Below, in pieces: positions 9,888-54,593 of a DNA stretch of 54,593 bases (positions within the stretch are counted from its first letter, which is position 1; every line of letters starts with the position of its first letter). The translations under genes were made by a program, and so were the position numbers. Location: the NCBI GenBank assembly GCA_964514585.1, contig CAZETU010000001.1, positions 289,409-344,001 on the forward strand, given 5' to 3'. This DNA is from Candidatus Woesearchaeota archaeon. GTDB taxonomy: Archaea; Nanobdellota; Nanobdellia; Pacearchaeales; GW2011-AR1. Below the pieces are notes generated by a model. That model was not told the origin of the DNA. It searched no databases and saw nothing but the letters and a program-made list of their open reading frames with translations.

Positions 9888-10229
9888 CGCCGGCGTATGG
9901 AGTTGGCGAACAATTCGCTTTTTCGAATCCAAATATATCAAGACTATCTTTCGAAAATGCAAATTGTGAGTAGGAATTCTAAGATTCGCAATCCACGATT
10001 AATTTTCCCCACGAAACCTTTTTGCAAACTTAGCCTGTAGACTTGCTTCAATTGAAGCATTCTCTCTTAGTTCATTCAGCCCAAGAGCACAAAGGATTTC
10101 ATGTCTCTGTTCAGTAGTTAAGTTAGTTATCTCAGGAGGGGAATATCCAACACTAGAATCATAGGCAACATCATCTCTCATACAGGCAACTACATTCTAA
10201 CATTTATTAAGATTCCTATCCACGACTAA
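9858..10229 (+). repeat. three direct copies of the aRF1 3' end (9858-9887, 9973-10002, degenerate 10207-10229)
   Basis: GGAATTCTAAGATTCGCAATTCATGACTAA vs GGAATTCTAAGATTCGCAATCCACGATTAA (27/30) vs TTAAGATTC-CTATCCACGACTAA. Confidence 0.9.
9999..10181 (-). CDS. hypothetical protein (60 aa) inside the repeat-bounded insert
   Basis: ATG-started ORF that nearly fills the segment between repeat copies 2 and 3; its stop lies inside copy 2. Confidence 0.45.
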   Translation of the reverse strand: MRDDVAYDSSVGYSPPEITNLTTEQRHEILCALGLNELRENASIEASLQAKFAKRFRGEN

Positions 10230-29343: not shown

Positions 29344-29422
29344 AACAACTTTTAATAAAATCTATATTTAAGTCTTTGGTAATTTTCAACTGTCAAAGAA
29401 TGACACAGCAAAAAATATATCT

Positions 29423-29505
29423 GATAATTTCAGGAGTCACATCTCGTGAAATTATCCCAAAAAATTCTGCAGAATTTTCCCAATGATTTTTTCACCAGAA
29501 AAAAT
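29423..29505. repeat. structured intergenic element, copy A (three inverted repeats)
   Basis: GATAATTTCA-ggagtcacatctcg-TGAAATTATC; 18-bp palindrome AAAATTCTGCAGAATTTT (29461-29478); TTTTTTC-acca-GAAAAAA. Confidence 0.8.
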
Positions 29506-52158: not shown

Positions 52159-52863
52159 ATGGACGACAAAGAGCTCATAAAAAAAGTAAGAAATTCTCTA
52201 ATTGCAAAAAAATCCAAATCAGAAATACTACGAGGTTTCCAAAAAAGAGGCTACAAATTAGAATACGCTGAAGCACTCCTAAACAAAGCCAAAAAGCCAA
52301 AAAAAGTCGTCACGGTCCTAACTTTATTAATAATCGTTTCAGCCCTACTATTCGCAACATTCTACATCTCATTTTTAACAGGCCAAAAAACAACCTTAAC
52401 AAATCCGCTTGCAGGCTTCACAATCACAGGAAATACTATAGCAGATTCAAATCCCCAGATTCCTCAAGGTACCCAAATCCTAAATCAAAACTCAACCACA
52501 GAAAAATCCCTAGAGCAAATCGAAATAACTCCAGAATTCATATCCTTCCTACTCCAAGAAATTGGCGCAAGCCAACTCCATTCAAATCTCCTAGAAAAAC
52601 CAATAATAAACGTCAAAATAGAAGATCAAGTATTTCATTCAATTATCGGAAACGAAATAAAAACAACAGAAGGTCTAAGTGAAGATGCAGACATCCAATT
52701 CAACACAAATAAACCAGATTTAGTCGAGGCTATAATATCAGACAATCCAGAAATAATCTTCAAAGAATCAATCACAAGCGGCAACACTCAAATCGAACTC
52801 AAAACAAGCGAAACAGAACTCTTCTCAAAAGGATACCTCGGACTTTACGATTCCCTAAGATAA
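52159..52863 (+). CDS. membrane-anchored protein with SCP2-like C-terminal domain
   Basis: one TM helix; 'EDADIQF', 'IFKESITSGNTQIE', 'ELFSKGYL.LY'. Confidence 0.6.
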   Translation: MDDKELIKKVRNSLIAKKSKSEILRGFQKRGYKLEYAEALLNKAKKPKKVVTVLTLLIIVSALLFATFYISFLTGQKTTLTNPLAGFTITGNTIADSNPQIPQGTQILNQNSTTEKSLEQIEITPEFISFLLQEIGASQLHSNLLEKPIINVKIEDQVFHSIIGNEIKTTEGLSEDADIQFNTNKPDLVEAIISDNPEIIFKESITSGNTQIELKTSETELFSKGYLGLYDSLR

Positions 52864-52992
52864 CCAATAATTTATTTTGTCTGCTACCACTCTAAAATTT
52901 TCTGTCACCAACGCCCAATTCTTGTACCTACTACCCATGGACGAATTTTCAGAGAAAGACTTAAAAGCAAAATATCATTCTAATATATACAT

Positions 52993-53010
52993 TAGAACAT
53001 ATATGTTCTA
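52993..53010. promoter_or_regulatory. perfect 18-bp palindrome, candidate autoregulatory operator
   Basis: TAGAACATATATGTTCTA, ending 10 nt before the wHTH ATG. Confidence 0.6.
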
Positions 53011-53020
53011 CCTTAAAACC

Positions 53021-53287
53021 ATGGGAGACAGCTTTGATTTATTTTTCAGAAGAAAGCCAGCGATGATGCTCATAGCCCTAAAGAAGGTTTCTCGAGCAAA
53101 ATACGGATCACAACTAGCAAAAGAAGTTGACTGCACATATTCTCACGCTGTAAAAATTCTACAAAACCTTGAAGAGCTAGGGCTAGTAAGCTTCGAAAAA
53201 AAAGGCAGAATCAAAATAATCAAGTTAACCAAAAGGGGAACTGATGTTGCAGAACATATAGAAGCAATCCGAAAAATTGTTGGGTAA
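53021..53287 (+). CDS. MarR-like winged-helix transcriptional regulator
   Basis: 'YGSQLAKEVDCTYSHAVKILQNLEELGLV.FEKKGR.K..KLTKRG'; start MGDSF chosen. Confidence 0.85.
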   Translation: MGDSFDLFFRRKPAMMLIALKKVSRAKYGSQLAKEVDCTYSHAVKILQNLEELGLVSFEKKGRIKIIKLTKRGTDVAEHIEAIRKIVG

Positions 53288-53437
53288 TTCTCAAGTAATC
53301 CTAAAGATTATATATTAGTCATAATTTTATTCCGGGAGTCGCGTCTCGCGGAATAAAACAAAAACAATTCGGCAGAATCACCTTGCCCACAAGGCATTAG
53401 TCACATAGAAGCTATCCGAAAAATTGTTGGATAATTC
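53255..53437 (+). repeat. duplicated regulator 3' end (53255-53290 vs 53402-53437) flanking structured element copy B
   Basis: 33/36 identity; TTTTATTCCG-ggagtcgcgtctcg-CGGAATAAAA hairpin at 53325-53358. Confidence 0.9.
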
Positions 53438-54436
53438 CTAAACACCTTCTCGACTTTCTCTCAATATATCTTTCCCACTAAAAAGAATTAATAAGCAAAA
53501 TCCAATAGCCGAAACTATCAATCCCCTAACTCTATAAATCAAACTAAAGAGAAGCCCAGCCCCGGCCTCATTTTTCAGCAAAGCAAAGAATCCACTTTGT
53601 CCAAATTCCATCGAACCAAGCGCCATCGGCAAAGGAATAAGCGTCGTAATCCCAACAATCATAATTACAATAATCAACTCAAGCACATTAGTACTTACCC
53701 CAAAACTCAAGAGTAAAAACTTATATTCAATTATGGCAATAACCGCAGACAAAATATAAAAAGAATAACTAGCAAAAAAAGCCTTTTTCTGATGAATCAT
53801 AAAATGACTCAACCTAGAATCAATATCCTTCAAACTCTTTCCCATCTTCTCCAATCTTTTCTTACTCAAGAAAATGCTAAACAAATTATGAAACAATCCC
53901 TTCTTACGGCTAAGTCTATAATATACATAAGTTAAAACTAACATAGAAAAAATTATCAAACCAAAAAGAATTAATCTAATAATACCAGGCATACCCGGAA
54001 TAAAAATCAAAAGAACAACACCTACCAGCCCAAACGTAAGCGAACCCAAATATTCCATATATTTATCAAGTATAATACTCGCCGTCCCAGTTTTATAATC
54101 AACATTAGATTCTTTCTTAAGCATATAAATCCTCAAAGGCTCACCACCAATCCTCGAAGACGGCGTAACAAAACTCACAGCATAGCCAGCCAATTGCATT
54201 CTAAGAAGCTTCAAGAAACCAACACTTTTCCCATAACCTTTCAAAATTGCTTGCCAACGCCAAACAAGTGGGAAGATTGACACTACCGTAAAAAAAGCAT
54301 AAAGCCACATATACTTAGCATTAAAATTCGCCCGAAACAATTCTATCCCATCCCCGCCAAGTGCATAAAGACTATAAACAAATAACAAAATACCAGCAGT
54401 AAATAAAAAAATCTGCATTTTACTAATCCTCTTCAT
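53438..54436 (-). CDS. lysylphosphatidylglycerol synthase TM-region / flippase-like protein (UPF0104)
   Basis: 'WRWQ.IL', 'VTPSSRIGGEPLR.Y', 'P.P.ALG..EFG', 'YRVR'. Confidence 0.88.
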   Translation of the reverse strand: MKRISKMQIFLFTAGILLFVYSLYALGGDGIELFRANFNAKYMWLYAFFTVVSIFPLVWRWQAILKGYGKSVGFLKLLRMQLAGYAVSFVTPSSRIGGEPLRIYMLKKESNVDYKTGTASIILDKYMEYLGSLTFGLVGVVLLIFIPGMPGIIRLILFGLIIFSMLVLTYVYYRLSRKKGLFHNLFSIFLSKKRLEKMGKSLKDIDSRLSHFMIHQKKAFFASYSFYILSAVIAIIEYKFLLLSFGVSTNVLELIIVIMIVGITTLIPLPMALGSMEFGQSGFFALLKNEAGAGLLFSLIYRVRGLIVSAIGFCLLILFSGKDILRESREGV

Positions 54437-54546
54437 TAAATAATCTCGTAAAATTCATTATTAAAACTTTTCATCAAATCTTGCTACGACAATAACAAGG
54501 CCAATAAGCAATAGTTTTTTAAATCAAATTTATCATAAATATTTAT

Positions 54547-54593
54547 GGCTTCGTAGCTCAGCCTGGTTAGAGCACTAGACTCTTAATCTAGGT
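54547..54593 (+). tRNA. tRNA-Lys(CTT), truncated by the window end
   Basis: GGCTTCG-TA-GCTC-AGCCTGGTTA-GAGC, anticodon arm CTAGA-CTCTTAA-TCTAG. Confidence 0.88.

Follow-up and report, generated by a model that had tools for sequence, protein, structure and literature searches.

A duplicated regulator gene end with silent-only differences as a candidate integration scar in a Woesearchaeota archaeon

Introduction

Integrated elements of archaea are known to use the 3′-distal parts of protein genes as targets; 14 of 68 do so in Thaumarchaeota, one of them at an AsnC-family regulator (PMC6563490). The att repeats of crenarchaeal integrated elements measure 29-69 bp, and archaeal elements form tandem arrays (Krupovic et al. 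2019, PMC6563490). Here we describe a duplicated gene end in the genome of a Candidatus Woesearchaeota archaeon (G000; 1.04 Mb in 18 contigs, ~37% G+C, completeness 89.65%). It lies near the end of the 54,593-nt stretch that was analyzed (G000:C1:289409-344001, hereafter the window, in whose coordinates positions are given unless a contig is named), where the last codons of a MarR-like regulator gene occur a second time behind 111 nt of non-coding DNA. The sequencing runs that contain the stretch are salt-lake metagenomes; none of those listed is an RNA data set. We hold with moderate confidence that recombination inserted foreign DNA at the regulator's last 11 codons and left the two 36-nt copies as scars to its left and right, and the scar seen here is most likely a spent cassette at a recurrent docking site.

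As at other archaeal gene 3′ ends that host integrants, the locus shows direct repeats of the gene's own end, a gene that is kept intact and a small regulator as target; as with the crenarchaeal integrants, the repeat lengths at this site fall in the 29-69 bp range and the site is reused. The elements of PMC6563490 span several kb and encode an integrase or casposase, whereas the insert here consists of 111 non-coding bases with no recombinase gene nearby. Of the marks of integration at a gene 3′ end, two are seen, namely flanking repeats that equal the gene end and an intact target open reading frame (ORF); a recombinase in or next to the insert is absent.

A bacterial parallel is found at icd of Escherichia coli, where e14 (and also phage 21) integrates: e14 carries a replacement end for this essential gene and the resident end is displaced to the far side as icdC (PMC13626634, citing Hill et al. 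1989). Most differences between icd and icdC are silent or conservative (PMC13626634). The present locus resembles e14 at icd in having a gene end that would be element-supplied, a resident end displaced as a pseudogene fragment, and mostly silent differences. Unlike the case here, e14 is a 15-kb bacterial prophage that has its own integrase, excises on SOS induction and duplicates a longer segment.

A third class, 'insertion with long target duplication', is defined by repeats >30 bp, a single-copy target and no mobility gene (Nobusato et al. 2000; Furuta et al. 2010, PMC2853133). Its repeats vary in length, differ slightly from each other and from the target, and in some cases overlap a gene 3′ end; the mechanism is unknown (PMC2853133). 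Restriction-modification units of bacteria served to define the class, and the screen yielded no archaeal case (PMC2853133). The present 36-nt repeat likewise exceeds 30 bp, has a single-copy target in relatives and has no mobility genes nearby. Unlike that class, its insert of 111 nt holds no gene unit, although sister cases do carry one ORF or a pair of genes with a HicA toxin. With differences that are all silent, two functional alleles are a better account than on-the-spot duplication.

The gene end is duplicated with silent differences only

The direct repeat comprises 53255-53290 and 53402-53437, which are identical at 33 of 36 positions at a start-to-start offset of 147 nt. The features concerned are these:

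52937..53287, + strand: winged-helix (MarR-like, HTH_27) regulator gene, the target gene, intact; alternative ORF starts at 52877, 52937 and 53021
53255..53290, + strand: copy 1 of the repeat, made up of the ten final codons with the stop codon and TTC; belongs to the working gene
53264..53280, with a second copy at 53411-53427, + strand: 17-nt core (ATCCGAAAAATTGTTGG), identical in both copies
53291..53401, no strand assigned: insert between the copies, 111 nt, non-coding, without an ORF
53402..53437, + strand: copy 2 of the repeat, a displaced, untranslated gene end that finishes 1 nt before the stop codon of a UPF0104 gene

The copies differ by CAT/CAC (His), GCA/GCT (Ala) and GGG/GGA (Gly), every change being silent and at a third codon position, and both encode HIEAIRKIVG followed by a stop codon. 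For this gene end alone, three silent differences out of three have P ~0.014. The 36-bp repeat, its offset, the 111-bp insert and the silence of all mismatches had been reported in a first-pass annotation made from the letters of the window, and all are confirmed.

The repeat is not a chance match: across >120 related loci the best chance matches of a 30-mer reach 13-21 of 30 positions, compared with 28 of 30 here. The 36-nt sequence occurs nowhere else in the genome, and a scan of all its ORF ends for a downstream copy returned the ends of the regulator gene and of the aRF1 gene as the sole non-identical duplicates. A 21/30 match in G022, considered as a decayed copy 2, falls in the conserved C-terminus of a gene that G011 also has and is probably due to chance.

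Nor is the duplication an assembly artefact. A Logan contig and an ENA MEGAHIT contig, from independent public assemblies, both reproduce it without change, contigs from two more runs, X7 and X9, bridge the insert, and three assemblers agree on the duplicated structure. It is barely credible that an assembler joined the alleles of two strains, or that copy 2 is kept as translated or regulatory sequence. The sample does contain related populations, with contigs 90-95% alike in the same runs, and the offset, a multiple of three, places copy 2 in frame with copy 1; but the in-frame stretch ahead of copy 2 contains no ATG, GTG or TTG and two stop codons precede the copy, and translation of copy 2 is therefore excluded. 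Unrecognized translation had been offered in the first-pass annotation as a way in which the codon conservation might be explained otherwise, and it was not found.

Copies of other kinds were also sought. A search for inverted copies of gene ends found none, and no attP-like copy of the regulator gene end was found on small contigs. When viral contigs were searched with degenerate patterns for both gene ends, the regulator end had no match; a match to the aRF1 end lies inside an unrelated ORF on the opposite strand and was set aside as chance.

The same gene end is duplicated in other organisms

Three other organisms carry a duplicated regulator end with different DNA between the copies. The duplication in G034 is of 38 nt and surrounds a 580-nt cassette with its own TATA box and one ORF. 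On metagenome contig L101, 57 nt are duplicated around a gene pair (L101:1481-1916) in which one gene encodes a HicA toxin (HicA E = 1.9e-18); the 76-aa ORF upstream of hicA has no Pfam match and may be the antitoxin gene of a hicAB pair. L157 has a 30-nt duplication around just 36 nt, and its copies include an AGA/CGT change from Arg to Arg. Differences are silent-only or nearly so in all three of these cases too. Repeat length at the regulator end thus ranges from 30 to 57 nt, and the left repeat edge is similar across the cases and nearly the same in G000 and G034. In G034, L101 and L157 it is copy 2 that stands in the ancestral context, directly before the tRNA-Lys promoter. The gene end is single in ~95 relatives, none of which has it adjoining a UPF0104 gene.

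Copies within a genome share lineage-specific amino acids (IVG in G000, LVA in G034, and an Ala at the aRF1 end), and unusual nucleotide states are distributed unevenly between copies. The in-gene copy of L157 has 6 mismatches to the nearest relative, L148, where ~1.5 would be expected at the background identity of 95%; the displaced copy has 3. The unusual state TAC of L101 lies in the left part of copy 2, as does GCT in G000, where all relatives read have GCA. L148 and L157 also differ by inversion of a short segment with tRNA-Lys, which no inverted gene-end copy flanks.

The neighbourhood of the duplicated end consists of the following:

53438..54436, − strand: LPG_synthase_TM (UPF0104) membrane protein gene (Pfam 4.3e-33), convergent, with its 3′ end touching copy 2
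54547..54593, + strand: 5′ part of tRNA-Lys(CTT) (Rfam match); the rest is on contig C5

The regulator gene is a core gene, present in 56 of 61 related genomes. Its conserved part begins near the ATG at 53021. The protein scores 25.5 bits against Pfam HTH_27 (curated cut-off 22.2) and stays under the respective cut-offs of other winged-helix Pfam families, and the label 'MarR-like' is acceptable only loosely. In many members of the genus tRNA-Lys(CTT) follows within ~40 nt of the regulator gene, and it is also directly behind that gene in the closest metagenome relative, L099 (94% protein identity); on these comparisons we take tRNA-Lys(CTT) to be the ancestral downstream neighbour. In G000 the regulator gene and the tRNA are 1.2 kb apart, separated by the insert, by copy 2, and by the UPF0104 gene and the promoter region of the latter. 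The UPF0104 gene is accessory: it occurs in 2 of 48 genus relatives, both of which have it convergent to the regulator gene with another ORF between. The stretch behind the regulator gene is therefore a variable spot. A permissive Rfam search of 52800-54593 gave the tRNA as the sole match and none in the insert.

This setting suggests another, unlikely origin, with some real merit: the UPF0104 block may come from a sister lineage that has the UPF0104 and regulator genes tail to tail. Homologous recombination would have joined it on the side of tRNA-Lys, and an illegitimate event would have joined its other end. On this view copy 2 would have hitch-hiked as a remnant of the regulator gene of the donor, and the 111 nt would formerly have lain downstream of the gene in the recipient. 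An import would account for a copy 2 that abuts the UPF0104 stop codon exactly as in a native tail-to-tail pair, for an accessory gene that always stands beside the regulator gene, and for nearest relatives in which tRNA-Lys directly follows the regulator gene (one contig of run X7 joins 53234 to 54511); a donor allele would also be compatible with silent-only differences. It sits badly, however, with the three other organisms, in which copy 2 has the tRNA-Lys context and the new DNA is between the copies, and with the near equality of the left repeat edge in G000 and G034, unexpected for random illegitimate joins. Moreover, the 111 nt are unlike the tRNA-Lys promoter spacer behind the gene in most relatives.

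Duplicated aRF1 ends and the pooled codon statistics

The end of the aRF1 gene is duplicated in five genomes (G000, G031, G064, G061 and G030). G000 has three copies of it around two inserts, at an offset of 115, which is not a multiple of three; G031 likewise has three copies and two inserts, and in G064 and G061 the copies flank ORF-bearing inserts. The proposal in the first-pass annotation that the regulator locus replicates the aRF1 pattern is thus borne out, and extended by the three further organisms at the regulator end. Older aRF1 copies are decayed: copy 3 in G000 has an indel, and the G030 copy matches at only 19 of 30 positions. Old copies decay, and lasting selection therefore does not act on displaced copies; the clean copies are young. 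Both the aRF1 offset and this decay speak against retention of copy 2 for a function. In three genus relatives (G063:C18, G066:C28 and G001:C9) aRF1 is part of open frames of 814-880 aa in which the match is split at about residue 180, an arrangement that suggests an intein.

Pooling of seven repeat pairs gives 26 differing codons, of which 23 are silent, stop-to-stop changes included. With one quarter of changes expected to be silent, P is ~1e-11; with 40% expected, it is ~4e-7. The three exceptions are a boundary codon, a D/E difference that matches other lineages' alleles, and an H/Y difference in a displaced copy.

These figures bear on whether the target was duplicated at insertion, by a staggered cut and fill-in of the kind made by a transposon or casposon, to give identical copies that then drifted, which is quite improbable. 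Direct repeats do flank the insert, the genome has many small inserts between repeats of 24-78 nt, and copies within a genome have lineage-specific amino acids in common. Drift, however, should hit a dead copy at all positions: beside ~3 silent changes in the 10 codons of the live copy, several changes of any kind would be expected in the dead copy, and none is seen. Target duplication followed by drift therefore does not fit the pooled 23 of 26 silent codons, even with 40% expected silent. The variation of repeat length at the regulator end is a further difficulty, and so are the absence of inverted terminal repeats and a search of the genome (89.65% complete) that found no Cas1 and one weak TnpB-like match.

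Related mechanisms were considered and rejected. A transposon or miniature inverted-repeat transposable element is contradicted by an internal hairpin as the sole inverted repeat, by a single-copy insert and by a repeat length that is not fixed; a casposon-like origin is contradicted by the failure to find Cas1. The mismatches (T/C, A/T and G/A) are all silent and not adenine-specific, unlike those of a diversity-generating retroelement, for which no reverse transcriptase search was made.

The insert and its hairpins

Within the insert the following features were noted:

53307..53317, + strand: TATA-like box (ATTATATATTA), just upstream of the hairpin; putative function
53325..53358, no strand assigned: palindromic hairpin with arms 53325-53341 and 53342-53358
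53371..53401, + strand: weak candidate for a relic of the 5′ end of a lost small gene
53381..53394, no strand assigned: second small hairpin, CCTTG-CCCA-CAAGG

The insert is strongly structured (folding compared with shuffles, z = -4.9), and no second copy of it was found in the G000 genome or in the 150 family genomes searched. The larger hairpin has 10 contiguous pairs, a G.G mismatch, 3 pairs and a 6-nt loop, TCGCGT; the 10-bp stem and the CCTTG-ccca-CAAGG motif are present as first annotated. Positions 53371-53401 agree at 28/31 with the beginning of an 84-aa ORF from another genus, the alignment having a 3-nt gap that keeps the frame; the start codon is lost here. That ORF has no Pfam family and was not found within the genus of G000, and the similarity is a weak lead only. 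Two further similarities of the insert start, to the start of the hicAB cassette (P = 0.02 by shuffling) and to a G022 intergenic region (P = 0.005 by shuffling), were discarded, as several unrelated A+T-rich loci score alike.

The palindromic hairpin belongs to a family of 4-5 copies, the others being at C5:41195, C5:44033 and window ~29434, with a decayed one at C5:200 (further coordinates: window 29421-29469, L001:7181-7229 and L001:10027-10075). The core GAGTC(G/A)C(G/A)TCTC is conserved, and across four sequences 6 of 13 stem pairs show compensatory changes and 0 are broken. The exact core is absent from the 48 other genus genomes searched and is species-specific. The other copies occupy ordinary intergenic regions behind A+T-rich TATA-like stretches, and no flanking direct repeat of at least 12 nt was found around them. 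The pair on C5 lies ~120 nt upstream of genes for small membrane proteins. The hairpin probably acts as a regulatory palindrome or forms a small structured RNA, and in the insert it would have been a passenger.

A different, 65-nt palindromic element (arms CAATTCGC / GCAAATTG) does accompany duplicated gene ends. It is found in aRF1 insert 1, beside tRNA-Leu, tRNA-Trp and tRNA-Arg, and beside and within tRNA-Cys copies (window 9888-9972; G000 C1:115749-115805, C7:27948-28008, C2:106656-106712 and C4:73391-73436), almost always next to tRNA 3′ ends and often between duplicated gene ends. The C4 copy splits a second, pseudo tRNA-Cys copy. Behind tRNA-Lys the element stands at C5:51-138, where the same 25 nt of tRNA 3′ end flank it on both sides (L185:26-163); this copy is ~1.3 kb downstream of the regulator locus, and the same arrangement is seen in L101 and G033. 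In other genera (G091 and G137) it is multi-copy or forms tandem arrays. The 111-nt insert is similar to it in lying between duplicated gene 3′ ends, and differs in that the 65-nt element is multi-copy and conserved across genera. An nhmmer search with a 16-sequence profile of the element returned copies at aRF1 and tRNA genes and nothing at the insert (C1:342699-342809).

The first-pass annotation had tied the repeats to the hairpin family, in effect proposing a mobile, hairpin-bearing miniature element that creates repeats on insertion. This is highly improbable. The pronounced folding of the insert and the compensatory changes across hairpin copies would suit such an element, and the 65-nt palindrome shows that structured DNA can sit between duplicated ends, at aRF1 and at several tRNA genes. 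The insert, however, is single-copy, the other hairpin copies lack flanking repeats, the 65-nt profile does not match the insert, and the same site elsewhere carries cargo without either hairpin. Uniqueness of the insert, which the annotation itself had named as telling against its proposal, defeats the mobile hairpin; neither the insert at other loci nor an empty site abutting UPF0104, both of which it had suggested looking for, was found.

A proposed route of integration

In the scenario we favor, integration at the gene end, the incoming DNA would have carried its own functionally equivalent regulator end from a sister lineage ~92% identical. A single Campbell-type crossover between the two versions, most likely within the 17-nt identical core, would keep the gene whole, place the cargo behind the stop codon and push the second gene end against the UPF0104 stop codon. 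The left junction, attL (B-O-P′), would then join the host's left part to the incoming right part, and the right junction, attR (P-O-B′), the incoming left part to the host's right part. Later deletion may have shrunk the cargo to 111 non-coding bases with the TATA-like box, the palindromic hairpin and the second small hairpin. A tyrosine recombinase supplied in trans may have carried out the crossover, or homologous recombination by the cell itself may have sufficed.

Such an origin would explain why the copies differ at silent positions only, because both versions would have served as ends of working genes. Three differences in 36 nt are about what is expected between populations ~92% identical, and the comparison of the copies supports descent of both from working gene ends of different lineages. 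The odd in-gene copy of L157, and the odd states in the left part of copy 2 in L101 and G000, fit the attL/attR layout that a single crossover would leave.

Several observations weigh against integration. A tblastn search with the genome's six tyrosine recombinases detected no integrase or mobility gene within 1.5-2.5 kb at ~130 loci around the regulator and aRF1 ends, and these six genes (PF00589) are located elsewhere in the genome, among them C3:124611, C9:10937 and three on C16. An empty site, with the regulator end abutting UPF0104, was found neither in 80 metagenome loci nor in four runs (X7, X9, X10 and X11), whose contigs show no 147-bp skip; the sole joint seen, the 53234-to-54511 join already mentioned (a 140-nt contig), belongs to a relative. 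Double-stranded DNA of only 147 bp is too short to form a circle, so that the cargo would once have been larger and its shrinkage after insertion is assumed. The nearest relatives of G000 are only ~84-89% identical in the gene body, and either copy may be the foreign one there. Finally, no clear homologue of the insert identifies the original cargo. The series of a 580-nt cassette, a hicAB pair, 111 nt and 36 nt at one site is consistent with cargo shrinkage and is no proof of it.

More generally, and tentatively, conserved gene ends in this DPANN group (those of the regulator, aRF1 and tRNA genes) may be docking sites for a recombinase-free exchange of small cassettes. Cassettes would move between sister lineages by short-homology recombination, each bringing a functional replacement of the gene end; the regulator/tRNA-Lys junction would be one hot spot, and the present locus a spent cassette there. 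Taken singly, the locus is a small scar and fairly ordinary as a mark of integration; its value is as a clean, well-controlled data point for a recurring pattern in which single genes and toxin-antitoxin pairs stand behind conserved genes, between silently different gene-end copies, with no recombinase nearby. Lineage-wide recombinase-free exchange would be more interesting. If exchange is recombinase-free or relies on an enzyme in trans, it would help to explain the turnover of accessory genes in ~1-Mb genomes with few mobile elements. For annotation, short 'pseudogene' copies of gene ends would mark insertion boundaries, and a core gene may end in codons of foreign origin.

Other duplicated-end units in the genome

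G000 holds many more units in which repeats of 24-78 nt enclose 100-900 bp, often with one orphan ORF and in one case with a gene for an NYN-domain protein. Single-gene units of 500-900 bp with repeats of 26-62 nt were noted at tRNA ends, gene ends or promoters (C2:158163-158981, C3:45213-45835, C3:94912-95877, C2:200646-201192, C2:195807-196333, C6:12110-12644 and C5:34393-34980). At G000:C1:257774-258013 a 78-nt segment with the promoter and 5′ part of tRNA-Phe occurs on both sides of an 86-nt insert ending in GATTGTGAGTA; apart from clustered changes in the D-loop, its two copies are identical. Exact 55-nt repeats beside runs of N, at C1:289196-289480 (the window start), C1:18368-18733 and C4:86671-86880, are artefacts of scaffolding or k-mer overlap and not biology.

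Contig C9 (11,957 bp, 31.5% G+C) has a tyrosine recombinase gene near one end, and its ends share 55-nt overlaps with ends of C5 and C7 that hold two tRNA-Glu genes; C9 probably represents an element of 12 kb that has entered the 3′ end of a tRNA-Glu gene. Contig C12 (4.4 kb, 30.6% G+C) has identical 55-nt ends and is probably a small circular replicon. Contig C16 (3.5 kb) carries three tyrosine recombinase genes in tandem.

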